DNA of 60,610 nt from the sequence record OP136151.1. One strand, given 5' to 3'. Shown piece by piece: positions 19,164 through 36,142 of the stretch. A model generated the notes under the pieces. It saw only the letters and a program-made list of their open reading frames with translations. It was not told the origin of the DNA and made no database searches. Numbering within the stretch: position 1 is the stretch's first letter; every line of letters begins with the position of its first letter. The position numbers and the translations under genes were made by a program. Origin of the DNA: Escherichia phage Pondi.

Positions 19164-19177
19164 GGGGCTTCGGCCCC
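19164..19177 (+). promoter_or_regulatory. GC-rich UUCG-tetraloop stem-loop (GGGGC-UUCG-GCCCC), third copy
   Basis: Same hairpin as at 2222 and 9157, here on the plus strand after the lipoprotein gene. Confidence 0.5.
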
Positions 19178-19182
19178 AAACT

Positions 19183-19377: not shown

Positions 19378-19601
19378 TGTCCATCGAGCAAGCATTAGCC
19401 CAAACACCTGGCGGCTTCAAACTGACCAGTTTTGACGGTCGCAACGACTCGGCTGTATGGGAAGACCGCAACGGGAATACGGTCGTTAAGTTTTACGAGG
19501 GGTATTTCGCACGATACAACGGCGAGATGTCGTCAAACTACGACACCATCAACGAGGCTTGCGCCTGGCTGGAATCAAAAAAGAAATGGTGGGGTAAATA
19601 A
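19374..19601 (+). CDS. Hypothetical protein, 75 aa
   Basis: ATGA-coupled ORF. Confidence 0.45.
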   Translation: MMSIEQALAQTPGGFKLTSFDGRNDSAVWEDRNGNTVVKFYEGYFARYNGEMSSNYDTINEACAWLESKKKWWGK

Positions 19602-19602
19602 T

Positions 19603-19788
19603 ATGGCCTGGGCTTACTGTGAGCACTGCGGCGCGCCAGTAGCGCAACCTACCGCACGCGAAATACTGAAAGAAGAAGTCTATTGTTTATCTGGTTGCGG
19701 TAGACCTCAAACCGTACGCGGTGACACACGCAACGATGCTATAGACGAACTGTTCGACCGTCTGGAAAGCCTGGAGAAACGACCGTGA
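19603..19788 (+). CDS. Small zinc-ribbon protein, 61 aa
   Basis: CEHCG...C..GCG (CxxC-x20-CxxxC) pattern. Confidence 0.4.
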   Translation: MAWAYCEHCGAPVAQPTAREILKEEVYCLSGCGRPQTVRGDTRNDAIDELFDRLESLEKRP

Positions 19789-20021
19789 TCGACTTTATGA
19801 AACTGCTGGAAATGGTACACATCGACGGTTTCCGCTGTGAAATCTCAAGCGATGATGATCGTGTTACGTTTGTCTGGCGTGGTTACGATGATGTGCTGGG
19901 TCAAACGTATGGCGTGTCACGCGTTGTCAGTAAGGTAATGATCACTCAGGCGATGGTGCCGGAAGATGTGATCGAACGCCTGGTTGACTGTGCGCGTAAA
20001 GGTCTGGAGAAGATGCAATGA
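19785..20021 (+). CDS. Hypothetical protein, 78 aa (GTG start)
   Basis: GGAG-N8-GTG; GTGA overlap upstream and ATGA overlap downstream. Confidence 0.45.
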   Translation: MIDFMKLLEMVHIDGFRCEISSDDDRVTFVWRGYDDVLGQTYGVSRVVSKVMITQAMVPEDVIERLVDCARKGLEKMQ

Positions 20022-20719
20022 TCCTCTGGTTCCTGTGTGACGGGTCCGGCCTGATGGGTCAGCCGTGGGCGGAGGCGGGTCACACCGTCTACTGCTTCAA
20101 CGCGGACGAGGGCGACCACGGGCCTTATACCCGCTTCGGGTGCCGTGTGGAGCATCCAAACATTCACTACATCAACACCTGGATTGACAGTAAGTTTGTG
20201 ATGAAAGCGATGGCGACCAGTGGCGATAAACCTGATTTAATATTTGCTTTCCCACCGTGCACGGATATTGCCGTATCAGGTGCCCGACACTTCGCCGCTA
20301 AGCTGGCAGCTAACCCAGCGTGTCAGGATGACGCTGTAGCAACTGCGCGCATTGCTGAGCGTTTGGGGCGGTGGTTCAACGTGCCTTACATGATTGAAAA
20401 CCCGGTCAGCGTGATGGCCTCACTGTGGCGCAAACCTGATTTCACTTTCCACCCGTGGGAGTTCTCCGGGTATCTGCCGGAAGGAGATATGCACCCGTTT
20501 TTCCCGGACCTGATTGCAGGTCGGGATCAGTACCCGAAAAAGACTTGCCTGTGGACTGGTAACGGCTTTAAGTATCCGAAGAAACTCCCGGTACCCATTC
20601 CGCCAGGGTACAGCGATCAGTTCCACAAGCTGGGCGGCAAGTCTGCAAAGACAAAAACCATCCGATCACTAACCCCGCGCGGCTTCGCACTCGCGGTATA
20701 TCAAGCAAATAAGGATTAA
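20018..20719 (+). CDS. Putative DNA (cytosine-5)-methyltransferase-like protein, 233 aa
   Basis: Motif I-like WFLCDGSGLMG, catalytic Pro-Cys motif FAFPPCTDIAVSG, ENV-like YMIENPV and GNG motif in the order expected for C5-MTases; short target-recognition region. Confidence 0.45.
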   Translation: MILWFLCDGSGLMGQPWAEAGHTVYCFNADEGDHGPYTRFGCRVEHPNIHYINTWIDSKFVMKAMATSGDKPDLIFAFPPCTDIAVSGARHFAAKLAANPACQDDAVATARIAERLGRWFNVPYMIENPVSVMASLWRKPDFTFHPWEFSGYLPEGDMHPFFPDLIAGRDQYPKKTCLWTGNGFKYPKKLPVPIPPGYSDQFHKLGGKSAKTKTIRSLTPRGFALAVYQANKD

Positions 20720-20722
20720 ACC

Positions 20723-21370
20723 ATGAAACAATCAATTGTAGACGCTATCTTACGCAACGCTGAGCACAAATCCGGTATCGTCGAACGTGACAAGACCATT
20801 TGCGCCCGTCGATCTGCGGTGGCTGTGCGTATCCGTGATTACTTCCTGAAGCAATCCGGTCTGAGCATTGAGGAAATTTTAGCATTAAAGCGTGACGCCG
20901 ATCATATCAATGACAAGCTGAAAGCGTTCGGCTGTGTCAACGCTCAGGTAACAAGCGATTACTTTTATGTAAACGTATGCGGTCACAGCCATAACATTCG
21001 CATTGACGGCCTGCGCTACGGTGGCACGTATGATGATGCGCGTTCATTGTTTGCTGATAGCGGCGCTGACATCGAGCATTGCATCGTACCCGCCTGGCCT
21101 GTTGGTGAAGGTCTGGTGTACCCGTATGAATCCGCACGCGATGAGCTTATGGCGATTGATGCCGACGCTAAGGCGCTGCGCAAGGACTACGACAACCTTC
21201 ACGCCACGCTGAAAGCCCAGCTTAAGCCGTTCCGCACGGTTGCCGCACTGCTGAAAGCCTGGCCGGAAGCGGCTGAATTAATCCCGGCGACCGAGAAACC
21301 GCAGTCAACCGAGATTGCGCTTGATGTGTCCACGCTTAACGCGCTGTGTGGGGTACCATCTGGTAAATGA
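20723..21370 (+). CDS. Hypothetical protein, 215 aa
   Basis: AAGGA RBS; no recognisable motif. Confidence 0.5.
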   Translation: MKQSIVDAILRNAEHKSGIVERDKTICARRSAVAVRIRDYFLKQSGLSIEEILALKRDADHINDKLKAFGCVNAQVTSDYFYVNVCGHSHNIRIDGLRYGGTYDDARSLFADSGADIEHCIVPAWPVGEGLVYPYESARDELMAIDADAKALRKDYDNLHATLKAQLKPFRTVAALLKAWPEAAELIPATEKPQSTEIALDVSTLNALCGVPSGK

Positions 21371-21375
21371 TTTAC

Positions 21376-21404
21376 TTGACGGCATGGAAGCCATCAATTA
21401 TATT
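21376..21404 (+). promoter_or_regulatory. Sigma70-like promoter candidate (TTGACG-17-TATATT)
   Basis: Good -35/-10 match with 17-nt spacer just after the stop of gene 20723..21370. Confidence 0.4.
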
Positions 21405-21435
21405 TAGTTCACCAACAACACAGAGGGCTAATCGA

Positions 21436-21702
21436 GTGAACGTAAACGAAGCACTGAGTATCGCACCGGAAGGCTGGGAACTGATCAGCTTTGACAATAT
21501 GGGCGCTTGTCAATACAAACGCGAGTCGCATTTATTGAAGCGTTATCGTAACGGTACATGGGTATGCGTTGCTCGCGCTAACGATGAGCGTGAGTACGAA
21601 AGTAACGCATACCTGACAGCACAAGACGCGATCGACGACTGTCGCCGGGCGTTTGAGTCGCGCCGCGAAAAACTTTTCATATCACTGAGGAATTTAAAAT
21701 GA
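21436..21702 (+). CDS. Hypothetical protein, about 88 aa (GTG start)
   Basis: GTG preceded by AGAGGG; the longer upstream extension would contain the promoter candidate. Confidence 0.4.
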   Translation: MNVNEALSIAPEGWELISFDNMGACQYKRESHLLKRYRNGTWVCVARANDEREYESNAYLTAQDAIDDCRRAFESRREKLFISLRNLK

Positions 21703-21986
21703 AATATATCACCTGGATTCTCGCAGCATACGCCGCACTGGCTATCGGTATGAACGTAGCGCACGCGGCTGTACTCAAGACTCACACCTACAGTTTCACC
21801 ACAACCTACATCGTGACGGATACTGACAAGATCCCGGCGTGCATTATCTATGGCGGCGGTATGCCACTGGTCACACCAAACGCCTGTGATCGTGCCGTAC
21901 GCGTCATGGCTGAGCTTATCCGCAAGGATGACCCGACGGCACTCCTTGACTTCACTCTGGATGGTCTGGAGTTAAGCAAGTCATGA
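21699..21986 (+). CDS. Predicted secreted/periplasmic protein, 95 aa
   Basis: N-terminal signal peptide MKYITWILAAYAALAIGMNVAHA with an AxA cleavage site. Confidence 0.55.
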   Translation: MKYITWILAAYAALAIGMNVAHAAVLKTHTYSFTTTYIVTDTDKIPACIIYGGGMPLVTPNACDRAVRVMAELIRKDDPTALLDFTLDGLELSKS

Positions 21987-22252
21987 TGCGCGGCTATGTG
22001 CTGACGGTCGAGCTTAAAGCGGGTGCGAAGCTGTACCACTACCCGCAGCAAGTAGGCGGCCACCGCTGGGCGCTGACAGGGGCGAAGGTTGTCCCCGCCA
22101 GTCTTGATGAAACGTGCGACCAACTGGTTAAAGAAGGCTGGCTGGTACCGGGCGATGAGAGAAACGAGTGGGTACTATGGCAGACGGCATCATCAAATTC
22201 AAAATCTACCCCGGAAAACTCCGGGTCTACTTCAGCCTTGAAAAATACCTGA
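21983..22252 (+). CDS. Hypothetical protein, 89 aa
   Basis: ATGA-coupled ORF; 3' end overlaps next gene by about 76 nt, so C-terminus uncertain. Confidence 0.35.
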   Translation: MMRGYVLTVELKAGAKLYHYPQQVGGHRWALTGAKVVPASLDETCDQLVKEGWLVPGDERNEWVLWQTASSNSKSTPENSGSTSALKNT

Positions 22253-22509
22253 AGGACTTCCCGGACCGCAAAAGCGATGAGTACGCGTTAACAAACGCTT
22301 TTGCTACCGTTGAGCACATAGGGCCATGCGTGGTGTATATCAGGGAGCCTTCACCGTCGCTGGTGATGCACGAAGCTATACACTCAGCATGGGATGTTTT
22401 AAATCACGTAGGGATCAAGGTTGAATATGACAACCACGAAGCATTAACCTACCTGGCCGAGTATATTTTTACGGAGACTTTAAAGCTATGGACTCGCTAT
22501 TCGCGTTAA
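22177..22509 (+). CDS. Small protein with HExxH zinc-metallopeptidase-like motif, about 110 aa
   Basis: VMHEAIHSAWD contains HExxH; start set at internal ATG. Confidence 0.4.
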   Translation: MADGIIKFKIYPGKLRVYFSLEKYLKDFPDRKSDEYALTNAFATVEHIGPCVVYIREPSPSLVMHEAIHSAWDVLNHVGIKVEYDNHEALTYLAEYIFTETLKLWTRYSR

Positions 22510-22564
22510 TAGTTTTTATCGTACTGTGCTACGGGTTCTATAAAATACTGGAGATGATACTGAA

Positions 22565-23059
22565 ATGATTTACATCTGTGATTTGGACGGTACCTTGTAC
22601 GACAATCGCCACCGCGCGCACCTGATGCCGACTGGCGACAAACGCAACGACACCGAAGCCTGGGCGCAGTTTAACGGGGCGTGCCGTGGTGATAAGCCGA
22701 TCCCTAATATGCTGGCTATCATCAAGCAACTGTTGGCTAGTGGTGAATATGTGCGATTCCTCACCGGGCGCGGCAAGTCTGCCTACCTGCCGACGATGGA
22801 CCGCCTGCATAACGATCTGGAGTTAAGCCGCACGCTTATCGAATTACAGATGCGCCCTATGGATGACCACCGAAGCGCGGCTGAGTTCAAGTGTGATATA
22901 CTGCGCCGCCTGCTGAAGACCTACGGAACTGAAAAGTTTACGTGCTTTGAGGATGACCCTGAAGTTTGCGCAGCATTCGAAGCGCTTTCAGACCGGGTGA
23001 TCGTGGTGCAGGTTGATAGCCTGTGCGCTGCTGTACTGGATGGGGATAGTAATAAGTGA
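22565..23059 (+). CDS. HAD-superfamily phosphatase, 164 aa (polynucleotide 3'-phosphatase/nucleotidase-like)
   Basis: Motif I ICDLDGTL (DxDGT), motif II LTGR, conserved Lys, motif IV FEDD. Confidence 0.65.
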   Translation: MIYICDLDGTLYDNRHRAHLMPTGDKRNDTEAWAQFNGACRGDKPIPNMLAIIKQLLASGEYVRFLTGRGKSAYLPTMDRLHNDLELSRTLIELQMRPMDDHRSAAEFKCDILRRLLKTYGTEKFTCFEDDPEVCAAFEALSDRVIVVQVDSLCAAVLDGDSNK

Positions 23060-23292
23060 AAACAGTTGAATACTTTGGTTACGCGGTGGACGTACCGAAT
23101 AGAGCCACACACCTGGCGGCTGACGGTGACGGAACGGTTTACGCGTTTGTCGGTAAACCGTTCATTTTAGCTTACGTATGGTGGCCTCGAAACGGTTATG
23201 GTGCTGTCGAAACCTGTTACGTTACCGACTGCCCGAAACTCGATACACAAGCTATCGACTGGCGCGACTCACTGAAGGAGATTAAATCGTGA
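23056..23292 (+). CDS. Hypothetical protein, 78 aa (GTG start)
   Basis: GTGAAAAC context; coupled to neighbours. Confidence 0.45.
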   Translation: MKTVEYFGYAVDVPNRATHLAADGDGTVYAFVGKPFILAYVWWPRNGYGAVETCYVTDCPKLDTQAIDWRDSLKEIKS

Positions 23293-23918
23293 GCAATATT
23301 CACGTAATGGCAGACGTTGAGAACCTCAGCGTCGAGCCAAACGGACCTGTACTGACCATCGGCCTGGTAGCGTTCGACATTACCAGCGGTGAGATTGTGG
23401 CGGAGTTTTACGAGCGCATGGATCGCAATCTGGCGCAGAAATACGGCACGCCCAGCCTTTCTACCCTGAAGTGGTGGGAAGGTCAGGACGAGGCGGCCAG
23501 GGCTGAAGCGTACAACGGTACCAGCGACCCGCGCAACGTGGCGCGTAGCCTGCGTGAGTGGTTCGTCAAATACAACCTGGGTAACTCCGGCATTTGGGGC
23601 AACGGATCTGTAATGGACATCGCCCAGCTTGAATGGTGGCTACGTCAAACCAACCCTGTGATCGGTAAGTACGGGCAGGAATACCCGTGGAAATACAGGA
23701 ATATCTACGACATGCGCACAATCATGATGCTTGCAGGTATGCAGATGCCCCGCACGCGCCCGGCGCACATCCAGTATCATAACGCGCTGCATGATGCCCG
23801 GTACCAGGTTGAGTGGGTGTGCAAGGCTTACGCCAAACTCAATAACAAACCTGCCGTAATGCAGCAACAGCCGGACACGTGGCCGCCGGATGTAGATTCA
23901 TTCATTACTGCTGATTAA
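23289..23918 (+). CDS. DEDDh-family 3'-5' exonuclease (DnaQ-like), 209 aa
   Basis: Exo I MADVENL (D-x-E), Exo II GNGSVMDIAQL, Exo III YHNALHDARY (Y-x3-H-D). Confidence 0.7.
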   Translation: MSNIHVMADVENLSVEPNGPVLTIGLVAFDITSGEIVAEFYERMDRNLAQKYGTPSLSTLKWWEGQDEAARAEAYNGTSDPRNVARSLREWFVKYNLGNSGIWGNGSVMDIAQLEWWLRQTNPVIGKYGQEYPWKYRNIYDMRTIMMLAGMQMPRTRPAHIQYHNALHDARYQVEWVCKAYAKLNNKPAVMQQQPDTWPPDVDSFITAD

Positions 23919-23922
23919 TTAC

Positions 23923-23951
23923 TTGACAGTCAGGGACGACTATACTAAATT
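23923..23951 (+). promoter_or_regulatory. Sigma70-like promoter candidate (TTGACAGTCAG... -10 TAAATT)
   Basis: -35 TTGACA, 17-nt spacer; shares the extended TTGACAGTCAG with the candidate at 25852. Confidence 0.3.
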
Positions 23952-23986
23952 CATTATTCTACAAACGCGACAATAGGAAAATCAAA

Positions 23987-24169
23987 ATGAGCTTATTTGA
24001 CTTAGTATTCAATGCTTTCCAACCTGCGCCTGAAATCGGTAACACGTACCACGGTACCCGCACCGAGATCGTAACGTACACGAAGCGCTATACCCGTAAA
24101 GGTGTTCGCATCATTCCTTTAGAAGTCCGTGCGCTCCCTGGCAATAGCCGTGGTAAGGCGCGTCGCTAA
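23987..24169 (+). CDS. Hypothetical basic protein, 60 aa
   Basis: AGGAAAA RBS; TAATG coupling downstream. Confidence 0.4.
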   Translation: MSLFDLVFNAFQPAPEIGNTYHGTRTEIVTYTKRYTRKGVRIIPLEVRALPGNSRGKARR

Positions 24170-24660
24170 TGGCGATCACCTGTAACACACTGGACGAGGC
24201 CATCAAGCAGGCTGAACGCATGTCTGCGGTACTCGGTAAACCTTATTGCGTCGTGACGTATAAGGGGAAATACCGGGCAGTCCAGCGCGTTAACAAGCTG
24301 TACAGGCTGCGGGTAGTCTGGCAGAACTGGGAGCCTATCGAACGGTATCGCGTCCCAGTAGCCAACACGCCGATGAACAGAATGATTGTCGAGCGTAAAC
24401 CACGTGTTGAAGCTGCCGAATTACTGGGGATTCTCCCGCGACAGCTTGATACTGTGCGCAAGAAATACGGCTGGAAAAGTCCTGAGAAGGGCGTAAAGAT
24501 TGACCTTAATCATCTGCGTCACGCGATGCTAACCATGACCGCCAGCGATTACGCTGGTGAGATTGGGGTGTACCCTGAACGCATTTACAAGCTGTGCAAA
24601 CAGCATAACATCACGCGTCACGTCACGCGGCCACGGGGGAGTCGTAAAAATGGCAATTAA
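24169..24660 (+). CDS. Putative DNA-binding protein with two HTH-like segments, 163 aa
   Basis: AAELLGILPRQLDTVRKKYG and ASDYAGEIGVYPERIYKLCKQH resemble helix-turn-helix units. Confidence 0.4.
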   Translation: MAITCNTLDEAIKQAERMSAVLGKPYCVVTYKGKYRAVQRVNKLYRLRVVWQNWEPIERYRVPVANTPMNRMIVERKPRVEAAELLGILPRQLDTVRKKYGWKSPEKGVKIDLNHLRHAMLTMTASDYAGEIGVYPERIYKLCKQHNITRHVTRPRGSRKNGN

Positions 24661-24904
24661 TATTGAAGCTACAGCAACGAGTGTAGAGGTGGGTACGTCT
24701 ACCTACAACGAGATCAGCGTTAATATCGTACACTTGAACCTGGCCGAGTATGTGAGCGCTGAGGCAATTGTCGCTGAATACAGTGCATCTTCGCTACTAG
24801 ATGCGATCGGCGGCTTTGACGACTGGGTAGAAGAGGGGCGCGTCCGTGAATCAGACGTTGCTGAATGGCTGGCAGAACGTGGTTATAAAGTGGAGAAAGA
24901 ATAA
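24650..24904 (+). CDS. Small strongly acidic protein, 84 aa
   Basis: Internal ATG with GGGGGAG RBS; net charge about -12. Confidence 0.45.
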   Translation: MAINIEATATSVEVGTSTYNEISVNIVHLNLAEYVSAEAIVAEYSASSLLDAIGGFDDWVEEGRVRESDVAEWLAERGYKVEKE

Positions 24905-25104
24905 TGGGTAAGTTATCAGGTATCATTGCAATAGGTGCAATTTGGGGTGTTATTCTGGCTGGTATCACAGGCTGGTTCTTGAACCTGGCGCACTGCCTGT
25001 CGTATATTGGTGGAGGCCATCCAGATGATACCACCGCCGAAGTAGTGATGCGCATCGTAGGAATTTTCACCTTCTTACCTGGCGCGATTGCTGGCTGGCT
25101 GTAG
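24904..25104 (+). CDS. Small membrane protein, 66 aa, two predicted TM helices
   Basis: Two hydrophobic stretches; TAATG coupling. Confidence 0.45.
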   Translation: MGKLSGIIAIGAIWGVILAGITGWFLNLAHCLSYIGGGHPDDTTAEVVMRIVGIFTFLPGAIAGWL

Positions 25105-25150
25105 TAAATGATGGGCGCAATTCCGCGCCCCTCTCAAACGAGGTGCCTTT

Positions 25151-25846
25151 ATGAGTAAGAAACGTAATACCGCCGAAGTTGTCGAACTCAACACCACACC
25201 ATCCCCCGTTATCCGCGCAGATAAATCGCCCATTGAACCACGCACCGCAAACCAGGAATCGTATCTCGAAGCCATCCGAACCAAATCCCTTATTTTCGCC
25301 AGCGGTGAAGCCGGATGCGGGAAGACATTTATCGCGGCATGTAAAGCGGCTGAGTATTTATCTGACAAAGTTGTCGAACGGATCGTCGTCACCCGACCTG
25401 TACTCAACGCGGATGAAGACATGGGCTTCTTGCCTGGCGGACTTGCTGAAAAGTTCGACCCCTACTTCAGACCAGTCAAAGACACCTTAATCAAACGCCT
25501 GGGTGAGACGCACTTCAAATACTGCATGGACCACGGCAAGATTGAGATTGCACCGTTCGCCTACATGCGGGGCCGCAGCTTTGACAACGCGTTCATCATC
25601 CTCGACGAAGCGCAGAACGTCACACCTAAGCAAATGAAACTCTTCCTGACGCGTATCGGTGATAACTGCATCGTGGTCGTCAACGGTGACATCACTCAGT
25701 GCGACTTACCGAAGGGGACTCAAGACGGACTCAGCGATGCGTTAGCCCGTTTCCCCGACTCCGATGACGTGGCCGGGATTCTCTTCCACAAAAATGATTG
25801 CGTTAGATCACATATTTGTAGACTTGCATTAGAAGCCTACGAATAA
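25151..25846 (+). CDS. phoH: PhoH-like ATPase, 231 aa
   Basis: Walker A GEAGCGKTFIA and the PhoH-family FIILDEAQN...GD.TQCDLP motif. Confidence 0.8.
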   Translation: MSKKRNTAEVVELNTTPSPVIRADKSPIEPRTANQESYLEAIRTKSLIFASGEAGCGKTFIAACKAAEYLSDKVVERIVVTRPVLNADEDMGFLPGGLAEKFDPYFRPVKDTLIKRLGETHFKYCMDHGKIEIAPFAYMRGRSFDNAFIILDEAQNVTPKQMKLFLTRIGDNCIVVVNGDITQCDLPKGTQDGLSDALARFPDSDDVAGILFHKNDCVRSHICRLALEAYE

Positions 25847-25851
25847 ATCTA

Positions 25852-25880
25852 TTGACAGTCAGATTTAACTAACCTATATT
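25852..25880 (+). promoter_or_regulatory. Sigma70-like promoter candidate (TTGACA-17-TATATT)
   Basis: Strong -35/-10 match between phoH stop and next gene. Confidence 0.45.
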
Positions 25881-25915
25881 TACCCTATCGCTAACGAGCA
25901 ATGGGGTAAATAGTC

Positions 25916-26182
25916 ATGTTCAGATTCCAAATCAATATCCTGCGTGAAGCAGAAGCAACCTACCACATCAAACGTGAAGCCGCTGGCTACTACGTTGTCG
26001 ATGACAATCACCGTCGTATCACTCAAACCACACCTGATAAGGAGCAAGCCGTGATCTGGTTGCGCGTAATGGTCGTGCGCCTGGCATTGAAGAAACTCAA
26101 ATTACCTGCATCACCTACCGCCGGACTGCTGGCGGCCAACACCTACTCAGCATTTGCCTACGAAGTGGAGCGTATTAAATGA
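25916..26182 (+). CDS. Hypothetical protein, 88 aa
   Basis: ORF downstream of promoter candidate. Confidence 0.45.
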   Translation: MFRFQINILREAEATYHIKREAAGYYVVDDNHRRITQTTPDKEQAVIWLRVMVVRLALKKLKLPASPTAGLLAANTYSAFAYEVERIK

Positions 26183-26850
26183 AAACTATCACCCTTACAT
26201 CAAACGAAGCACTGGTCCTGATTGCCGAAGGTATGACGATGAATAACGTCAAGTCGCTGGCTAACAAGCTGCGTAACGCTGACGCACCTGTCGCGGCTAC
26301 CAATACTCAGTTCACGCAGTATGACAACGAAGTTGTAAAGCAAAACCTGAAGTTAGCAAATCAACAGGTGTACGACTACGAGCGTGCACTGGAGAAAACC
26401 AAAGCCCAGTCGAAAACATGGGAGCAGTCTTATCACGACGCTATGGTAAACCTGGAGAAAGCCAAACAGACTGAAAGCACACTGCGGAAAGCATTGGCTG
26501 AAGAAGGTGAACGCTTAAGCAGAATGACATCAAAAATTCGCGACCTGGAAAACGACGCCCGACAGGATGCCGAATCACTGACGTATTTCCGCAAGTGGGT
26601 GGAAGATTTCCGTATCAAGGCGGGTTACGCTGAAGGTGTGACACCTGCAACGGTGTTCAGTGATGTTATGGAATCCCTTAAACAGAACAAAGAAGCCTGT
26701 AAGCGTGCCGCTGACCTGGAATCCAAACTGGTGAAAGCCAACGACGTGATCGCTAACGTCAAAGGTGTTTATGATTCTGCACATGATTACGCTGAAATCA
26801 TGGTTGATAACATCAAGGTGCACGTGGAGGCTTACTACCGTGGCAATTAA
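26179..26850 (+). CDS. Coiled-coil protein, 223 aa
   Basis: GGAG-N8-ATGAAAAC start; long heptad-like helical segments. Confidence 0.5.
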   Translation: MKTITLTSNEALVLIAEGMTMNNVKSLANKLRNADAPVAATNTQFTQYDNEVVKQNLKLANQQVYDYERALEKTKAQSKTWEQSYHDAMVNLEKAKQTESTLRKALAEEGERLSRMTSKIRDLENDARQDAESLTYFRKWVEDFRIKAGYAEGVTPATVFSDVMESLKQNKEACKRAADLESKLVKANDVIANVKGVYDSAHDYAEIMVDNIKVHVEAYYRGN

Positions 26851-26878
26851 GGTGTTCACACCAGGCGAAGATTACCAG

Positions 26879-27091
26879 ATGGCGCAGCACAAGATTAACG
26901 TGTTCGGTCGTTACCTGCTATGCTGTATAGCATCGGCTGACGCACCTGTAACGTTCGATGAACTGGCCTCCTATACCGGCTACGACAAAGAGCATGTGCG
27001 CAAGGCGGTAAAGAAACTTGAAACGGCTGGAGTCGTTACTATTCACAAACCGCATCGTAAGGAGGCTCAAATTGTCGCAACATTTATTTGA
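26879..27091 (+). CDS. Small winged-helix-like DNA-binding protein, about 70 aa
   Basis: DELASYTGYDKEHVRKAVKKLETAGVV resembles a wHTH; start uncertain (weak RBS). Confidence 0.35.
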   Translation: MAQHKINVFGRYLLCCIASADAPVTFDELASYTGYDKEHVRKAVKKLETAGVVTIHKPHRKEAQIVATFI

Positions 27092-27560
27092 GCATCATTT
27101 CAGATACGACCCCGTTACCGGGAAACTGTTCTGGAAAAGGCCAACGGCGAATTGCATGAAGCCGGGTGATGAGGTAGGCGCTGTAAACTTTGACGGTTAT
27201 CGCCAGTGTTATTTCAAGTGTAAGCAGTATAAAGTTCATCGCATAATATGGGAGATGTGTCACGGTACGGCACCCGATGGATTCATCGACCATATCAACG
27301 GTATACGTGATGACAATCGTATTGAAAATTTAAGAATCGCAACATCCGCTGACAACGGGAGGAATAGAGAACGTTTATATCGAAACAAGCTGGGTGTTAA
27401 AGGGTTGTGTGTAGGTAACGGATCGTACTGCGCTTATGTGTGCGACAATCGAAAATACTTCCCTTTAACTGAAGAAGGTAAACGCCTCGCCGTGGAATGG
27501 TTACAGGCTCAACGACTGGCACATGGAGAATTTGCCAACCACGGAGAACACAAAGCATGA
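27072..27560 (+). CDS. HNH homing-type endonuclease, about 162 aa (TTG start)
   Basis: RYDPVTGKLFWKR and HRIIWEMCHG...IDHINGIRDDNRIENLR match the HNH motif; AGGAGG 6 nt upstream of TTG. Confidence 0.7.
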   Translation: MSQHLFEHHFRYDPVTGKLFWKRPTANCMKPGDEVGAVNFDGYRQCYFKCKQYKVHRIIWEMCHGTAPDGFIDHINGIRDDNRIENLRIATSADNGRNRERLYRNKLGVKGLCVGNGSYCAYVCDNRKYFPLTEEGKRLAVEWLQAQRLAHGEFANHGEHKA

Positions 27561-27868
27561 TTTTATTAATCGACGGGCCGCGAGTAGGTGATCGCGTTAC
27601 CAATTTACCTAAAGGATACAGGTGTTGCTTTCATCTTGATAACCACCCGGACATCGCCAGCTTTAACCGGGAGTATGACCGCCACAAATTCATCGTCGAC
27701 CTGATTGACGGCGTGGAAGTGATGACGGATGAGAACACCGCGATTAACGTGGTGAACCAGGCGCGACACGGTAATCTGACCGTACTCGCAAAGCATGTGG
27801 TGGATCTCATTGTCGCCACAAATGAAGCAATCATTGACGCACAGGAGGCCAGCCGCCATGTCAAATGA
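27557..27868 (+). CDS. Hypothetical protein, 103 aa
   Basis: ATGA-coupled to HNH gene. Confidence 0.45.
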   Translation: MILLIDGPRVGDRVTNLPKGYRCCFHLDNHPDIASFNREYDRHKFIVDLIDGVEVMTDENTAINVVNQARHGNLTVLAKHVVDLIVATNEAIIDAQEASRHVK

Positions 27869-28109
27869 ACCTAAACATATTGATCTTTGCGTTAACCCAA
27901 ACGGGCTGGGAGACGTGCTGAGCGACATGCTCAGTATCGTAAACAGTGACCGCAGTCAGGGAGTCTTTGCTGTACTGGGTGTGGTTGACGGTGTGCAACT
28001 GGTGCTGGCGGCGAGTGATGTCGATGAGTATCAGGTACATGATGAAGAACTGGAGATTCAGCTTGATGATCCGGTAATCTTTGAGCAACTCAAACTAACG
28101 TTTCACTAA
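27858..28109 (+). CDS. Small strongly acidic protein, 83 aa
   Basis: AGGAGG RBS; about 17 Asp/Glu versus 3 Lys/Arg. Confidence 0.5.
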   Translation: MSNEPKHIDLCVNPNGLGDVLSDMLSIVNSDRSQGVFAVLGVVDGVQLVLAASDVDEYQVHDEELEIQLDDPVIFEQLKLTFH

Positions 28110-28118
28110 GAGGTAATT

Positions 28119-28313
28119 ATGTTTTCTGTAGCCATAATTTTATCGTCGTTCGCGTGCCTGATGTTCAGTGTAGTGGCTTACATCCTGGCTGAAACATTCG
28201 AGAGTGTTAGCTGGCGTGAGCGTACATTGGGTGCGATCAGTGGGTCATTCATTGGAATACTAACCGGACTGGGCGTTGCAGCAATTCAAGTGTTGATACA
28301 CCTGGCATCATAA
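28119..28313 (+). CDS. Small membrane protein, 64 aa
   Basis: Two hydrophobic helices; AAGAGG RBS; last gene before terminator. Confidence 0.45.
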   Translation: MFSVAIILSSFACLMFSVVAYILAETFESVSWRERTLGAISGSFIGILTGLGVAAIQVLIHLAS

Positions 28314-28342
28314 AAACTAAGGGCGCTTATGCGCCCCTTTTT
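28313..28342. terminator. Bidirectional rho-independent terminator between convergent genes
   Basis: A-tract, stem GGGCGC/GCGCCC with TTAT loop, then T5 tract; lies between plus gene ending 28313 and minus gene ending 28327. Confidence 0.65.
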
Positions 28343-28515
28343 GCAACCTCACGTAACAACCGCAGTGTCCCGTCGTCTTCCTCCAGCACAAACGTAGCGC
28401 CCTTCACTTTGTTCAAAGCAAACGACAGGTTTTGTTTTGGAACGTCGAGCACTTCAGCCGCAGCCGTTAACGAGCGGTGACCTTCAATCCATTCCTTCAG
28501 TGGTGTGATTTTCAT
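28327..28515 (-). CDS. Small HTH DNA-binding protein (Cro-like), 62 aa
   Basis: RSLTAAAEVLDVPKQNLSFALNK resembles an HTH; GGAGG RBS. Confidence 0.45.
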   Translation of the reverse strand: MKITPLKEWIEGHRSLTAAAEVLDVPKQNLSFALNKVKGATFVLEEDDGTLRLLREVAKRGA

Positions 28516-28542
28516 ACATCCTCCTTTGTCAAGTAATCCATT

Positions 28543-29037
28543 CTACTTGGTTCCTTTGAAAGTGCCAATTCTTTTTTCGCCCAGCTTACCCGGTTCAAAC
28601 ACAAACAGCACTTGTCCCAGGTTGTTTCCGGCTACACGCTTTCCGGTAACGGGGTGAATGAAGGCCACACGCCCGATACTAAACCTGGCCTCTGAGCAAG
28701 CCTCCAGCGCCTTGTGAAACCAGCGAGCACCAGTCTGTGCGTTGACGATTGACACCACGCCACGGTCCGATTCGCTGCACTGTATCCACTGATCCACCCA
28801 CGGGTCCACGAAGGAGAACGGCGGGTTGTTCCATACCCATTTACCTTCCGGGCAGAAGTCCGCCCAGTTAAAACCTAACCCCTGCTTAAAATACAGGGGG
28901 AACTTTCTGTTGTGCTCATCTGCCGCCGCGTCGATTGCGAAATCGAACTCCAGCGACAGGCGATCAATCAACCACTGGGGCGTACCCCAGCAATCGCGTA
29001 ACTCCTTTGGTGTCTTGCTTGCGTAGAAAGGTTTCAT
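28543..29037 (-). CDS. DNA N6-adenine methyltransferase, phage Dam family (T1-type), 164 aa
   Basis: CWGTPQWL...FDFAIDAAA...WVWNNPPFS matches the compact phage Dam-family signature with NPPF catalytic motif; ATGA-coupled to primase-helicase. Confidence 0.7.
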   Translation of the reverse strand: MKPFYASKTPKELRDCWGTPQWLIDRLSLEFDFAIDAAADEHNRKFPLYFKQGLGFNWADFCPEGKWVWNNPPFSFVDPWVDQWIQCSESDRGVVSIVNAQTGARWFHKALEACSEARFSIGRVAFIHPVTGKRVAGNNLGQVLFVFEPGKLGEKRIGTFKGTK

Positions 29038-31445
29038 TCGTACAGTATCCCGTTGTCTGGTTCTTCAATCGGTCGAATAAACGCACCACGCAGTACGCGA
29101 GTATCACCCTCGTATCCGACTTCAATTTCGTCCATAGCATCAATCATACGGGCGAATGCGCCGAGACTACGGGTACCGCCGCCGTCATTATCAGCCGCCC
29201 AGTCACGGTAGCGTTTGAAGACGTCAGACAATGGTGCCCAGGTACCTTCACGAACAATCAGCGCTGACTGCACGAACACGTCAAGTGGAGACGTTGCCGC
29301 TTTGAATACGCGGATGCGTTCTTCCATACATTCGTGATTCTTCAGGCGCTTAACTTCACGCAGCTTTTTAAGACCTGCAATAGCCCAGTTGATGATACCC
29401 GGCATTTCCGCACGCAGCTTTTCAGTAAGGTCTGAATCTTCACGACCTTTAAATGAGCGCGGCGTGTGGAAGAACAGACCACGCTCGACCATTGCTGACG
29501 ATGACTCTGACAGGTTAGGGATGGCGTTACATGTCATGTTCAGACGACAGCGCATCGTAACTTCAATCGTTGACTGATATTTACGGTTGATGCGCACGTC
29601 GTCCTGGCCGACGATGTTTTTGATACGGTTGACCACGGCTGTACGGTTAGCCGGAGACGGATCGGATACGTCGTTCAGGAACGCGCCGAGTTTATCGTAC
29701 ATACCTTGCAGGTGCGCTTCGTTGGTCAGGTTGTCCAGCGTAGGCGACGCGCAGTTGTGGCTACCTAACATGGCGTGAAGGATACGCATCATTGTCGACT
29801 TACCGGAACGGGCCACGCCTGACATAATAAGCATCTTCTGCTGGGAAATATCATCCGTAAGCATGTAACCGAACCACATCTGCAACTGTTCAATGAGCGG
29901 TTCATATTTAGACTGGCCCCATACGCGATACAGGAACGCTTCCCACTGCGGACATGTCGCGGTAGGGTCGTAAGAGTACGGCAGGTGTGCACGAATACGG
30001 ATGTCCGGGCTATGAGCGATCATAGTGTTGCCATTGTTGATGTCCAGGATACCGTTGTCGAATGCTATCAAACCGGAAGTGTCGCGGTCAGGATCGTTCT
30101 TAAACTCAGGCCATTTAGCCGGAGCCTGTACGATGAGATGGTTTTTAATCATGCTCACTGTACCTTTAACGTCGGAGTCGCTCGGTGCTACCAGTTCCAT
30201 CTCACGGGCAACCATACCGTTAATCCAGCCGGGGGCCACGCTTTTGAATACTTTACCGTCGAACATGTAGAACTGATCTTCGCAGATGATGATCTCACCT
30301 TGTGCCGAGTTCTCAAGCAAGAATTTCTGAGCGTTCGTTGTATGGTTTTTGCTGTAGTCGATAGTGTCAACCAGCACCTTACCACTTTTACGCGCTTCAA
30401 CCACTGCGGCAGAAATGTCGGCAGCTTTCGGTGCTACTGCGGTTACGGTTTCCGGCACATAGATAGCCTGCTCAACTGGAGTCAGTGACATACCCGGCAG
30501 TATTGCGGCCTGCTCAGTGAGACGTGCAGCAAACGAGCGTGCACCCACACCATTCTGGCTGTACTTGTAAACGTTCTGGACGGTCGGCCACATCTCATCG
30601 CCCCACGGCGGTTCGTTGTTAGCGTCCCAGTAGTCAATCATTAACTCGTAGGTTTTCTGCGGTGACAGTTGGTAGTCACGTCCGGCTGCGGCAGTCTTAA
30701 ACAGCACATGGTTACCACCCTGGCCGCTAATGGATTGCTCGGCGCGCTCCTTCAGGTAGGTGATAAACTGTTTGCAGTTGTGATCGTTGTCGTCGAAGTC
30801 ATCCATCCCGCCCACGTACTGAGCGCTGCGCTGGCGTACCCACTCGCCCATCTTCATCATCTTCTCGTCGGTCAACGTGAAGCGTGAGATAACGTCGCGC
30901 AGTTTGTAGCGTGGTATGTCAGCGTGGAGTTCCGCCAGTTCGTAGAGAACGCGGTTGTCCAGTGACTTCTGGTGCATGAATCCCGGTACACGCATAACGC
31001 GGTCAGGGTTTACCATTGACTCGTCGCTACCGAAGTGCAGAGCGATCTGCTTCTGTGCGATCATCCACTCCATAGCAGAGCAGTCGCCGTCGATAAACCA
31101 GTAAGCGTGGAAGTGCGTGTCGTCGCGCTTGACGATAGCGTGTGGCGGAATAGGCCACTGGTCCGGGAACGGAGCACCGTCACTGTCCATGAAGACAGCG
31201 CGGAAGATGTCGATGTCATTCTTACCACGACCGCCTGTAGTCGAACCATTGACAGACGTGAACACGCCACAGCCGCGAGCCTGAAGGTCAGCCAGCTTTG
31301 TCGGATTCATATACGCGTATTCCCAGCCAGCCAGGTCGCGTCGGTCTTTGTCATAGTCACAGAACCACTGCCATACAAGCGGCGGGTTTTGCATTCCAGT
31401 TAGCGCGGCATAAAACAACTGCGCCTGTTCAGGCTTATAGGTCAT
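29034..31445 (-). CDS. Bifunctional DNA primase / SF3-type helicase (prim-pol N-terminus, D5/P4-like C-terminus), 803 aa
   Basis: N-terminal Asp- and His-rich primase-like region; C-terminal Walker A GVARSGKST and P-loop NTPase architecture. Confidence 0.65.
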   Translation of the reverse strand: MTYKPEQAQLFYAALTGMQNPPLVWQWFCDYDKDRRDLAGWEYAYMNPTKLADLQARGCGVFTSVNGSTTGGRGKNDIDIFRAVFMDSDGAPFPDQWPIPPHAIVKRDDTHFHAYWFIDGDCSAMEWMIAQKQIALHFGSDESMVNPDRVMRVPGFMHQKSLDNRVLYELAELHADIPRYKLRDVISRFTLTDEKMMKMGEWVRQRSAQYVGGMDDFDDNDHNCKQFITYLKERAEQSISGQGGNHVLFKTAAAGRDYQLSPQKTYELMIDYWDANNEPPWGDEMWPTVQNVYKYSQNGVGARSFAARLTEQAAILPGMSLTPVEQAIYVPETVTAVAPKAADISAAVVEARKSGKVLVDTIDYSKNHTTNAQKFLLENSAQGEIIICEDQFYMFDGKVFKSVAPGWINGMVAREMELVAPSDSDVKGTVSMIKNHLIVQAPAKWPEFKNDPDRDTSGLIAFDNGILDINNGNTMIAHSPDIRIRAHLPYSYDPTATCPQWEAFLYRVWGQSKYEPLIEQLQMWFGYMLTDDISQQKMLIMSGVARSGKSTMMRILHAMLGSHNCASPTLDNLTNEAHLQGMYDKLGAFLNDVSDPSPANRTAVVNRIKNIVGQDDVRINRKYQSTIEVTMRCRLNMTCNAIPNLSESSSAMVERGLFFHTPRSFKGREDSDLTEKLRAEMPGIINWAIAGLKKLREVKRLKNHECMEERIRVFKAATSPLDVFVQSALIVREGTWAPLSDVFKRYRDWAADNDGGGTRSLGAFARMIDAMDEIEVGYEGDTRVLRGAFIRPIEEPDNGILYE

Positions 31446-31454
31446 GAGATAACC

Positions 31455-31649
31455 TTATTTATTAGAGTTCAGTACCGTGATAGCAATGTTCAGGCGCGCG
31501 TCAGGGATAACACCGCAATGGCCTTTCATGTATACCGCCAACGTGCTGATCTTATATCCGGTAGCGGCCATCACTTTTTCAAAGCCAAACTCTTCGATAA
31601 GTTCAGCCAGCTTCTGGTTGTTCGGGTGTAACTCTTTATTACTTGCCAT
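31455..31649 (-). CDS. Hypothetical small protein, 64 aa (possible HTH)
   Basis: ORF between VRR-NUC-like and primase genes. Confidence 0.4.
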   Translation of the reverse strand: MASNKELHPNNQKLAELIEEFGFEKVMAATGYKISTLAVYMKGHCGVIPDARLNIAITVLNSNK

Positions 31650-32049
31650 TTTTAAATTCCTGAATGTAGTAGTCGATATGGGTTACGTCGGTTACGAAGC
31701 CTGCGATACCACCTGCCTGTCGCCAGTCGAGGATGCAGGCGTGCTGGGCTTTCGCTCGTTTGTCTCCCGGTGTCATGTGCCAGCCTGGTTTCTTAAATTC
31801 GAATCCGGTTAACACAAGAAACGTGCGACCTACCATCTCAGGCGTAATGGTGATTGGCGTGCCGCCGATGGAGTCGGGTGACTTCCACACTTCGTTGAGT
31901 TGCTTGGAGTCATTGCCGAGTCCAAAGCGAACAAGCGTACCGTTGCGGTCTGGCAATGCACCGGAGTTGTTGCGATACAACAAACCCTTGTACTCGCGCT
32001 GCATCTTCATCGCGCTGTGGTCGAATAGCTTTTTCTCTGCTTGTGACAT
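31639..32049 (-). CDS. PD-(D/E)XK nuclease, VRR-NUC-like, 136 aa
   Basis: PD...FEFKK (PD-ExK) followed by QHACILDWRQAGG (Q-x3-L-x3-G) typical of VRR-NUC; GGAGG RBS. Confidence 0.4.
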   Translation of the reverse strand: MSQAEKKLFDHSAMKMQREYKGLLYRNNSGALPDRNGTLVRFGLGNDSKQLNEVWKSPDSIGGTPITITPEMVGRTFLVLTGFEFKKPGWHMTPGDKRAKAQHACILDWRQAGGIAGFVTDVTHIDYYIQEFKNGK

Positions 32050-32177
32050 GGTAATTCCTCCAGTGAGAAACCGAGCATACAGTATTTAAAATACTTTGAA
32101 AAGAATTTTATAAGCCGTAAAGTAAATCAATCACGAAACATGCGATGACCGTACTGACAAACACCCACTCCCATAAT

Positions 32178-34046
32178 TTACGCATAGGTCAAGCCTCCTT
32201 TGGCATGAATCTCTTCGAGGTGTGCTTTGATTTTCTCAATCAGTTCAAAGCACTCTTTAGGTTTCAGCACCTGCGCATAGTAGACGTTGATGCCGAAGCG
32301 GTTTAAGAAAAGCTGTTGTGCGGCTTCCTTAGTTACATCACCTTTCTGGTGGTGCTCCATCCATTCGTCCTGTAATAGTTGACGAGTAGCGTGCATTGCG
32401 CGCCAGCGGCGATGGTTATTGATCTGAGTGTTCTTAGCGATAGCTGGTACGTGCATCCGGGTTACGTATTCTTCGGGTGACATCTTCAGTTTGAGTAAAT
32501 CTTCCTGAATCTCCTGACGCCACACCGCAGCCTGGTCGCTGATGGACTCGTCACCCGCTCGCATCTTTGCCAGTTCTTCCGCCGACACTTCTACTAATTG
32601 ACCTTTAACCATGACGGGTTCACCACGCGGGGCCAGAGGCTGTCGGCAGCCGCAATCAGGACAGCGTGACTCGGTAATTTCGTAGATATATCCACACGGT
32701 CGAATCCCGTTGTTAAATTGTTCGTCAGCCGACATAACTGCACATTGCTCAGGTGTGAACCTGCCGGACTTGTCGACAGGGACACGACAACGGGTAACCG
32801 GAACTGTGTCATCATCGCTGCTCGAAGACTTGCCACCTTTTCGGTCTGCCATTGACCAGACGCGGGGCTTATCGGGAAGGCCATGCTCCCGCCAGTTTCC
32901 CACATGGTCGAGTATAATCGCATAATCTTTACCGGGCGAAGGGCGAAGCACCCTGCCGAACGCCTGCATGAACCAGGATAAAGACATTGTGCGTCGCAGA
33001 AATTGTGCTGCCTCAATTGCAGGTAAGTCGAACCCTTCTGAGACAAGATCAACGGTAACGAGCACAAGTATTTCACGGCGCTCGAAAGCCTGGAGGGTCT
33101 TGAAACGTGTAGATTCATCATCGCCTCCGTGGAGTACGGCGGCTGGTATCCCTGCTCGCTGGTAAGCATTGGCCACAGACTGAGCGTGGGAGATGTCACA
33201 GCAAAATACAATTGTGAGTTTTCCATTGATGAGTTCCTGGTAGTGGCGCACTACATCGCCAGTGATTTTAGCCTTGTCCATCTCACGCGCCTGGTCCTGC
33301 TGGTTGTAGTCACCTCCAGCCGTCACACGCACCTTAGTAAAGTCCGCCTGTTCCGTAGGTGGCTCATAAATTTTATAGTCGCACAAGTTTCCTTCGTCAA
33401 TCAGCCAGCGCATCTCTGGCCCTTTGATTACCACGTCGACGATTCCGCTACCGTTGAGCGCTACACTCCCCATACCTTTACCGTCGGCACGTTCCGGTGT
33501 TGCAGTCACCAGCAAATAGCGCGCTTGAGGATTCATATATTGCAGAGGGCGACCGAAGGTGTTGTCGCGTGTCAGGTGGTGCGACTCATCGAACACACCA
33601 AAGGTGCAGCGCATTAATAACCGAAGCGTGGCCTCGCGCATGGCTTTGCGCTGTGGGGTAGCCTTCGGATTTTCTTTCAGTCGGGCGTTGACGGTCTGCA
33701 CAGAGGCCACGATCACTGGTGCACCTGGGCGATAGAATGTACGTCCGAACTTTGCCTGCTGTACGTTACCGCAGATAGCGCGAGTCTTCTCACTGCATAT
33801 AAAGTCGTGATGCAAATCTTGTGTCGCCAGACTTTCTGATATTTGACGCACCAGTTCCGAACGGTGACAGAAGATGATGCACATGTGACCAGCGTTGACC
33901 ATCTGTTCTACTATGCTGGTGAAGCAAAAAGTTTTACCTGCGCCCGTACTCATTATGATGACAGGTGCCTTATAGCCTGAGTGTAGGCAGGTGAAATACT
34001 CATTGATAACCTTCGCCTGATAGGGGCGCGCGGTACGTTTTGCCAT
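32178..34046 (-). CDS. SF2 DExH-box DNA helicase with C-terminal Cys-rich zinc-finger region, 622 aa
   Basis: Motif I MSTGAGKT, motif II DESHH, motif VI QAFGRVLR; C-terminal CRVP...CPDCGC. Confidence 0.8.
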   Translation of the reverse strand: MAKRTARPYQAKVINEYFTCLHSGYKAPVIIMSTGAGKTFCFTSIVEQMVNAGHMCIIFCHRSELVRQISESLATQDLHHDFICSEKTRAICGNVQQAKFGRTFYRPGAPVIVASVQTVNARLKENPKATPQRKAMREATLRLLMRCTFGVFDESHHLTRDNTFGRPLQYMNPQARYLLVTATPERADGKGMGSVALNGSGIVDVVIKGPEMRWLIDEGNLCDYKIYEPPTEQADFTKVRVTAGGDYNQQDQAREMDKAKITGDVVRHYQELINGKLTIVFCCDISHAQSVANAYQRAGIPAAVLHGGDDESTRFKTLQAFERREILVLVTVDLVSEGFDLPAIEAAQFLRRTMSLSWFMQAFGRVLRPSPGKDYAIILDHVGNWREHGLPDKPRVWSMADRKGGKSSSSDDDTVPVTRCRVPVDKSGRFTPEQCAVMSADEQFNNGIRPCGYIYEITESRCPDCGCRQPLAPRGEPVMVKGQLVEVSAEELAKMRAGDESISDQAAVWRQEIQEDLLKLKMSPEEYVTRMHVPAIAKNTQINNHRRWRAMHATRQLLQDEWMEHHQKGDVTKEAAQQLFLNRFGINVYYAQVLKPKECFELIEKIKAHLEEIHAKGGLTYA

Positions 34047-34104
34047 CTCGATGTTCTCTTATATGTGTGTTGACGATGAGGATAATAAAATTTTTAAAAA
34101 AGTA

Positions 34105-34134
34105 TTGCAATCGGTTTTTGGTTGAGTGTATGAT
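34105..34134 (+). promoter_or_regulatory. Promoter candidate in divergent intergenic region (TTGCAA-18-TATGAT)
   Basis: AT-rich 140-bp region between divergently transcribed helicase and gene 34187. Confidence 0.3.
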
Positions 34135-34186
34135 TCATTCCGTCAACACGACACAGCAAAACTTTAATCAACCTGGAGTAATACAA

Positions 34187-34951
34187 ATGTCTGGAATCTT
34201 TGAATCTATCGCATCGAACAACGAGAAAACTGTAGGTGTTCTGGAAGCGCTCGTAGAACAAAACACCAAAATCATTTCTCTGCTGGAAGTCATCGCTGGC
34301 GCTTACGGTAAACAATCTTACAACGGTCCGTTAACTGGCAACCAACAGTCATTCGCTGATGCGGCTGACGAAGTTGCTGAAGAAGTAGCTCAGTTAATCG
34401 GCCAGGAAACGGATGCTACCACGCTGGATAAGAACGGTCTACCGTGGGACTCCCGTATTCACTCTGCCGCTAAGACCTTCAACGCAGACGGCACCTGGAA
34501 ATATCTGCGTGGTGTTGATCGTGAAGTGCTGGTACCGCAGGTTGAAGCTGAACTGCGTGGTGATAAAGAGCGTGAAGATTACGCTACCGAAATCGAAGCC
34601 GGGATGAATGCACCAGTAGTACCTGCCGTTGAAGCGCCACAGGCACCTGTTGCACCGCAACCGGGTTTACCGCCGCTGACTGGTGTAGGTCTGCCGCCGC
34701 TGGTACCACAAATGCCTGTTGCGATCGACTTCCCGGCAATCGATGATGAGTCCGGTGCTACCGACGAAGCGATGGAACAGACCGCTGCGGCGCTGGCCCA
34801 TAAGCATGGTGCCGATGCACTGGAAAAACTGTATGGCCTGTTTGGTATCGCTGGCGGTAAGACTGCGAAAGACATCCAGGCTGGTTATAAATTTACCTTC
34901 TGGCGGTACGCCACCAACGATGACTTCCTGCGCAGCCAGTCAGTTATCTAA
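34187..34951 (+). CDS. Hypothetical replication-module protein, 254 aa, Pro-rich C-terminal segment
   Basis: Internal ATG with GGAG RBS; PQPGLPPLTGVGLPPLVPQMP low-complexity region. Confidence 0.5.
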   Translation: MSGIFESIASNNEKTVGVLEALVEQNTKIISLLEVIAGAYGKQSYNGPLTGNQQSFADAADEVAEEVAQLIGQETDATTLDKNGLPWDSRIHSAAKTFNADGTWKYLRGVDREVLVPQVEAELRGDKEREDYATEIEAGMNAPVVPAVEAPQAPVAPQPGLPPLTGVGLPPLVPQMPVAIDFPAIDDESGATDEAMEQTAAALAHKHGADALEKLYGLFGIAGGKTAKDIQAGYKFTFWRYATNDDFLRSQSVI

Positions 34952-34963
34952 GGGGATCACTCG

Positions 34964-36139: not shown

Positions 36140-36142
36140 TTA

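Follow-up and report, generated by a model that had tools for sequence, protein, structure and literature searches.

What does a very small and very acidic protein do near the end of the forward gene block of a coliphage? The question is raised by an ORF of 83 aa, here called gp48, in Escherichia phage Pondi (OP136151.1), a Xuquatrovirus-like E. coli podophage. The window, i.e., the whole stretch of DNA that was analyzed, comprises 60,610 nt. In non-model phages, the majority of early genes lack a known function, and so did the gp48 family. A preliminary description of the locus had offered gp48 as a possible DNA mimic or antidefense protein. The features of the locus are collected in Table 1.

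The acidic gene and its family

The reading frame of gp48 runs on the plus strand from an ATG at 27858 to a TAA at 28107-28109 (83 codons), and its translation is MSNEPKHIDLCVNPNGLGDVLSDMLSIVNSDRSQGVFAVLGVVDGVQLVLAASDVDEYQVHDEELEIQLDDPVIFEQLKLTFH. The 83-aa acidic ORF of the preliminary description is borne out by sequence and composition. Its count of three Lys/Arg was exact and that of about 17 Asp/Glu comes down to 16, for a pI of 4.05 and a net charge of about -13. The AGGAGG ribosome-binding site that it reported is indeed present 5' of the ATG, whereas its placement of the gene just before the early-block terminator holds only in part: the terminator is near, but gp48 is the second-to-last gene and a 64-aa ORF intervenes. 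The Shine-Dalgarno sequence falls within the 3' end of the upstream gp49-like ORF (codons for AQEA). Since this sequence and the MS[ND] N terminus are retained among distant relatives, the start at 27858 is favored over an in-frame ATG at 27795. In a crude gene call over the whole window, gp48 is the top protein for acidity per residue (-0.157), and the sole comparable protein (-0.154 per residue) is the product of a 228-aa ORF at 51637..52323 on the minus strand. The latter lies in the virion module, has 44 D/E against 9 K/R and a pI of 4.05, and could serve as a scaffold or be ejected as an internal protein.

The orthologues of gp48 in phages PTXU04 (gp48, YP_009823404; 98.8% identity) and Bas95 (Bas95_0052; 94%) are both annotated as hypothetical. 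The Pondi protein is itself already in GenBank as a hypothetical protein, and the family is without a characterized relative. The dN/dS ratio is 0.13 against Bas95 and 0.17 against a metagenomic relative of 78% identity, and the substitutions at codon positions 1, 2, and 3 stand at 14:10:40. Judged by these substitution patterns, the ORF is a real gene under purifying selection. Two antisense ORFs (27605..27928 and 27861..28088, both on the minus strand) were rejected as artifacts because the substitution pattern fits the plus frame. In residues 1 to 34 (27858..27959) dS against the relative L003 is saturated (>3), and it is 0.76 in the remainder of the gene, which suggests that the N-terminal third is a recombination mosaic with a breakpoint inside the gene. 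Diversifying selection on the N terminus was ruled out, as dS is saturated there too.

The family is narrow, with only about 16 relatives. Thirteen proteins with 75-99% identity came from a word-indexed search of 5.8 billion clusters, three full-length relatives (81-85 aa, 30-40% identity) from an exhaustive HMMER profile search of 1.84 billion representatives, and one extra member from a metagenome scan. Two long repeat proteins returned by the same HMMER search were spurious. A profile search of the 5.8-billion-cluster set gave no further members, scans of IMG/VR with gp48 and with the primase recovered only PTXU04 itself, and a scan of bacterial and archaeal genomes for gp48 returned nothing, with no sign of the gene in prophages. 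The slot is identical in every relative: a gp49-like ORF of about 104 aa, gp48, a hydrophobic protein of 60-85 aa, the terminator, and the converging HTH, Dam, and primase genes. No counterpart by position was found in Vibrio phages that have a related primase, as their gene order differs and the gp48 slot does not exist in them. Two divergent members (L007/L015 and L014) come from short contigs of the very fragmented GenBank assembly GCA_013565735.1 (JACCDR01...). Since the contig numbers exceed 12 million, they probably represent phage sequences within an assembly of non-phage or metagenomic origin.

Among the retained genes of the stretch, gp48 diverges the fastest. In the distant relative L005, it is 30% identical, compared with 45% for gp49, 59% for gp50, 68% for Dam, and 52% for the primase; in L003, it is 78% identical and gp49 94%. 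The acidity is conserved nonetheless, with a pI of 4.05-4.26 across the family even in homologues that are only 30-40% identical, so it is not due to chance. The first acidic candidate of the preliminary description, at 24650..24904 on the plus strand (84 aa, about 17 D/E and 5 K/R), is a variable accessory gene with 98% identity in L003, 44% in Bas95, and no match in PTXU04; its product has no match in Pfam.

Table 1. Features of the gp48 locus, with positions in the window
Feature	Position	Strand	Remarks
Near-consensus sigma70-type promoter, TTGACA-17-TATATT	25852..25880	+	11/12 match
gp49-like ORF, 103 aa	27557..27868	+	Stop overlaps the gp48 start by 11 nt
Shine-Dalgarno sequence of gp48, AGGAGG	27843..27848	+	9 nt before the ATG; GGAGG-type sequence kept in distant lineages
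gp48 CDS	27858..28109	+	From sequence, composition, orthologues, and dN/dS
Acidic-hydrophobic stretch, residues 62-76, DEELEIQLDDPVIFE	28041..28085	+	7 acidic, 0 basic; directly before the motif
Candidate beta sliding-clamp-binding motif QLxLxF plus terminal His, Q77-L-K-L-T-F82-H83-COOH	28086..28106	+	Conserved columns
Two-TM hydrophobic ORF, 64 aa (gp47 slot), last gene of the plus block	28119..28313	+	GRAVY 1.35
Bidirectional intrinsic terminator, GGGCGCTTATGCGCCC, T-run on both strands	28321..28336	.	Annotated at the same place in PTXU04

Homology searches, predicted fold, and possible DNA mimicry

A structural or metabolic homology would have spoken against the idea of the preliminary description, and none was found for gp48 in Pfam, PHROGs, NCBIfam, or the PDB or with Foldseek. 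gp48, gp49, and gp47 had no match in Pfam, PHROGs, NCBIfam, or PADLOC, and a sequence-profile search of the PDB with gp48 gave 0 matches at an E value of ≤10. The authors of a knockdown screen of PTXU04 likewise list the orthologue as "unknown" after HHpred and obtained nothing from AlphaFold either (PMC11879866, supplementary file 8). Our AF2 predictions reached a mean pLDDT of 46 with 12 sequences and of 62 with 15 sequences, including distant ones. The better model shows a helix (residues 14-30) and a beta-hairpin (36-52) at a pLDDT of 75-82. Residues 63-83 stayed below 50 in both runs; with a shallow alignment of 15 sequences, such low values are weak evidence for a disordered tail. Foldseek searches of the PDB and BFVD with the model gave best E values of 0.2-1.2, and the MADS-box-like helix-plus-hairpin matches among them were discarded as nonsignificant.

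Published data on the orthologues bear on function. Knockdown of PTXU04_00048 in a transcriptome-wide CRISPRi-ART screen of the phage in E. coli BL21 gave a score of -2.0 and the class "Not Fit" (PMC11879866, supplementary file 16), which indicates, without proving it, that the gene is dispensable in this host; its neighbors gp45 to gp54 were likewise "Not Fit," and the authors caution about false negatives (PMC11879866). Peptide fingerprinting of PTXU04 virions identified only gp7, gp10, gp11, and gp12 (PMC6563267).

As a DNA mimic or antidefense decoy, gp48 would have an acidic surface resembling nucleic acid and would sequester a DNA-binding protein of host defense or housekeeping, for example a restriction enzyme, RecBCD, a nucleoid protein, or the RNA polymerase (RNAP). 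With 83 aa and some 13 net negative charges, it keeps a strongly negative character at 30-40% identity. It is also small, placed in the putative early block, apparently dispensable in BL21, devoid of enzymatic or structural homology, and ahead of its neighbors in divergence, as host-interface proteins often are. These features are compatible with the general idea of the preliminary description. T7 Ocr, ArdA, Arn, and Gp5.9 are likewise small, very acidic, early phage proteins. However, gp48 has no sequence or fold similarity to these proteins, nor does it resemble any known mimic or antidefense family in PHROGs, Pfam, NCBIfam, PADLOC, PDB sequences, or Foldseek. Its conserved acidic residues cluster in a short tail and form no extended array, in a model that is too poor for surfaces to be judged, and the gene has no sign of positive selection (omega of 0.06-0.13). 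Moreover, Bas95 carries a copy with 94% identity, and this phage is described as "very sensitive to RM systems" (PMC11990801). Such sensitivity speaks against an Ocr-like role and makes effective Ocr/ArdA-type activity, and broad anti-restriction mimicry in general, unlikely, the data being those of a whole phage and not of a single gene. Taken as a whole, the decoy explanation appears distinctly unlikely to us.

Neighboring genes, expression, and a possible partner

The last transcription unit of the plus block, gp52 through gp47, is probably driven by the sigma70-type promoter of Table 1. Bas95, PTXU04, and L003 retain both of its hexamers, and the distant L005 still has the one at -35, a conservation that supports expression of gp48 by the host RNAP. 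From the gene order and this conserved sigma70-like promoter we infer that the block is early. The unit ends at a G+C-rich hairpin, the terminator, which separates the plus block from the converging minus-strand replication block with its HTH protein, Dam methyltransferase, primase, and helicase. No RNA family reached the gathering threshold of Rfam across the window (1..60610).

The gene downstream of gp48 belongs to a slot that is filled in all relatives by a hydrophobic protein of 60-85 aa whose sequence is not conserved. The Pondi product of 28119..28313 is swapped for unrelated sequences in PTXU04 and L003 (no tblastn match), and the protein of this slot may be a fast-swapping membrane accessory, involved for instance in superinfection exclusion. 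A highly variable 223-aa protein, a predicted coiled coil, is encoded in the gp51 slot (26179..26850, plus strand): its PTXU04 counterpart is 54% identical, Bas95 retains just the first 70 residues, and L003 lacks it. Between the wHTH gene (gp50 slot) and gp49 lies an HNH endonuclease ORF (27018..27560, plus strand; Pfam HNH_3, E = 7e-18), which is present in Pondi and Bas95. Since it is absent from PTXU04, L003, and L005, it looks like a mobile homing-endonuclease insertion, one that left the gp49-gp48 pair intact.

The stop of gp49 and the start of gp48 overlap by 11-29 nt in every lineage, the two genes are probably translationally coupled, and gp49 is possibly the partner of gp48. The gp49 family is as small and as unannotated as the gp48 family, and its sequence-profile search of the PDB returned only noise. 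gp48 could then be a subunit that is produced at a fixed ratio to gp49 through this coupling, pairs with it in a two-protein module through its acidic tail, and serves as a chaperone, inhibitor, or adaptor. Beyond the overlap itself, which places the Shine-Dalgarno sequence of gp48 inside the conserved C-terminal AQxEA codons of gp49, this explanation draws on the fact that the two genes always co-occur and are never separated, even though the HNH gene was inserted just upstream of gp49; both families are also narrow in the same way and both are "Not Fit." Yet overlapping starts are common across the block and need not imply a complex. gp49 is mildly acidic itself (pI of 5.4-6.5), so that charge complementarity is missing, and gp48 diverges much faster than its supposed partner (30% versus 45% identity in L005 and 78% versus 94% in L003). 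In addition, searches of Pfam, PHROGs, NCBIfam, and the PDB provided no known function for gp49. We consider a gp49 partnership, the main rival of the clamp explanation given below, unlikely.

The C-terminal tail and known clamp ligands

The C-terminal peptide of gp48, DDPVIFEQLKLTFH, carries the candidate clamp motif. There are 12 invariant columns in the 15-sequence alignment of the family, and Q77, L78, L80, and the C-terminal H83 are among them. Q77, L78, and L80 are invariant in 16/16 members, which represent about five lineages and go down to 30% identity. The third (K/P/D/N) and fifth (T/N/K/D) positions of the motif are free, and the last one is F in 15 of the 16 members; the exception, P0018, has a Tyr, which is outside the canonical F/L set. 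One or two residues follow, giving the family a tail pattern of QLxLx[F/Y](x)H-COOH (QLKLTFH, QLPLNFLH, QLDLKFLH, QLNLDYLH, and QLDLKFTH). The 20 aa that precede the motif contain five to eight acidic residues and no basic residue in every lineage. The motif is thus both conserved and terminal in this family.

Canonical clamp motifs, among which QLxLF and QLxLxF bind most tightly, have the form Q-phi-x-[L/M]-[F/L] or Q-phi-x-[L/M]-x-[F/L]; many of them lie in C-terminal tails (those of Pol II and Pol IV as well as that of Pol III alpha), and binding is helped by flanking negative charge or by a free carboxylate (PMC11139829). gp48 has Gln at position 1, an aliphatic residue at 2, Leu at 4, and Phe at the last position. 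A six-frame translation of the window gives 342 ORFs of 49 aa or more (40,059 aa in all), and gp48 holds the one match to the strict pattern QL.L.[FLY] among them. When the protein was shuffled 200,000 times with its composition preserved, the motif arose at any position in 1.3% of the shuffles and no more than two residues from the C terminus in 0.05%. These frequencies apply to a motif that was spotted after the conserved columns had been viewed, and six-residue linear motifs have high false-positive rates. The L-x-L-x-F spacing is also typical of an amphipathic beta-strand buried in a core and could be that here. The conservation outside the motif (DDPxI[FY][EQ] upstream of it and the terminal His) is unexplained by the clamp model and could reflect a folded element or a different partner. 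The C-terminal tip of SSB is DDDIPF, and the "DDPVIF" of gp48 was considered as an SSB-tip-like element; it was ruled out, the stretch not being terminal in gp48.

Some of the closest parallels are in the host. The alpha subunit of Pol III ends in QVELEFD and Pol IV in QLVLGL (PMC3716654, PMC4564189). Next to these tails and that of E. coli Pol II (QLGLF), the QLKLTFH-COOH of gp48 fits the hexameric high-affinity consensus. It sits at the extreme C terminus, has a single residue after the Phe, like the Pol III alpha tail, and has acidic flanks. In contrast to the polymerases, gp48 is an 83-aa phage ORFan without a polymerase or repair domain, so that it would be a putative ligand only, and its conserved DDPxI[FY] and terminal His lie outside the known motif.

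From this motif, we put the probability that gp48 binds the host sliding clamp at about 0.3. According to this explanation, the likeliest of those considered, gp48 would be an accessory protein of small size that resides in the cytoplasm, is expressed from a promoter of the host RNAP, and is built of a variable N-terminal third, a conserved core of helix plus beta-hairpin, and a highly conserved acidic-hydrophobic C-terminal tail as its functional part. The tail would dock in the hydrophobic cleft of DnaN, with the Gln in subsite 2 and the Leu/Phe in subsite 1, and the flanking carboxylates would steer it toward the positively charged clamp surface. gp48 would then compete with the host polymerases, the clamp loader, and Hda, and host replication would be shut down or repurposed, the phage itself replicating with its own clamp-less polymerase. 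Binding to DnaN and all these consequences are what we infer from the sequence. Clamp binding would account for the invariant residues, the terminal acidic tail, its nonpacking in AF2, and the dispensability of gp48 in the laboratory. In particular, the failure of AF2 ever to pack the best-conserved residues (63-83) would be expected for a tail that becomes folded only when bound, and a "Not Fit" orthologue is as expected of an accessory protein of host takeover. Judged on the conserved residues, a clamp motif fits gp48 better than DNA mimicry does and is the more specific alternative.

Phage proteins that contact sliding clamps offer three comparisons. MuC of phage Mu (Mor/C family) binds the E. 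coli beta clamp through QHDLF/QPDLF motifs (PMC12867686). Like the putative ligand gp48, it is a phage protein with a short terminal clamp motif directed at the host clamp, and its overexpression disturbs host replication control. Yet MuC activates transcription as a DNA-binding protein and makes a strong contribution to phage growth, whereas gp48 is acidic, has no DNA-binding domain, is apparently dispensable in BL21, and shows no homology to it. T4 gp33 (112 aa) varies in its N-terminal third, is conserved in its C-terminal part, and carries a hydrophobic-acidic clamp epitope at the C terminus (PMC2988020). It differs in that it binds the phage clamp gp45 and the beta-flap of RNAP and is essential; gp48 has no sequence similarity to it and is not known to contact RNAP, and a clamp is not encoded by PTXU04-like phages. 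Gp168 of Staphylococcus phage Twort and Gp240 of phage G1 are small early proteins with negative surfaces that bind the host clamp and stop host replication; the clamp blocked by Gp168 is that of S. aureus (PMC8565349). Gp168, however, is helical, plugs the DNA channel and not the protein-binding cleft, and has no clamp motif; gp48 has no PDB sequence or fold match to it.

The first two comparisons raise the possibility that gp48 is a clamp-tethered transcription cofactor similar to gp33 or MuC, whose core binds RNAP or one of the wHTH regulators (gp50 or gp46) and which couples middle or late transcription to replication. The gp33-like architecture (small size, variability in the first third, and conservation in the C-terminal part with its hydrophobic-acidic end) would fit such a role, as would the predicted wHTH regulators among the neighbors of gp48 and the near-consensus clamp motifs that MuC uses with the E. 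coli clamp (PMC12867686). However, late transcription and normal phage growth depend on gp33 and MuC, whereas the PTXU04 orthologue is "Not Fit," and no homology of gp48 to gp33 or Mor/MuC was found in PHROGs or Pfam. This cofactor role seems most unlikely.

The replication set of the phage includes its own polymerase, which belongs to the B family of DNA polymerases (PMC6563267), as well as an SSB-like protein, a helicase, and a primase. No terminal clamp motif was found in the other replication proteins of the phage, and no clamp or clamp-loader domain was recognized among the window proteins scanned against Pfam. gp48 might be an adaptor that captures the E. coli clamp for a clamp-less phage machine, either the B-family polymerase or replisome, possibly via gp49, or the transcription apparatus, via the wHTH regulators, a role that we regard as very unlikely. 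Pairing with gp49 is compatible with clamp binding, in that gp48 could act as a tether between gp49 and the clamp. The remaining probability belongs to explanations that are not considered here.

The conserved terminal motif, of the high-affinity clamp type, makes of an anonymous acidic ORF a hypothesis that a single experiment can address. If gp48 does bind the clamp, it would be an example from a coliphage of a protein aimed at the cleft in which DnaN binds other proteins, a natural 83-aa ligand of that cleft, and a new, unrelated member of the motif-bearing clamp ligands or phage clamp binders. As a target of antibiotics, the cleft has been validated. If the adaptor explanation holds, gp48 would represent a new lineage-specific hijack of the host clamp by a phage and not a simple inhibitor. 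If clamp binding is false, gp48 would be an ordinary lineage-specific accessory protein.

The Pondi primase (29034..31445, minus strand) is only 66-71% identical to those of PTXU04, Bas95, and L003. Since the genes that flank it (Dam, gp42, and helicase) are 86-100% identical, this points to a mosaic exchange of the primase gene within the genus. The helicase of Bas95 (L001, 11201..14065) is annotated with an interrupting intein, and that of Pondi (32178..34046) has the uninterrupted length of 622 aa.
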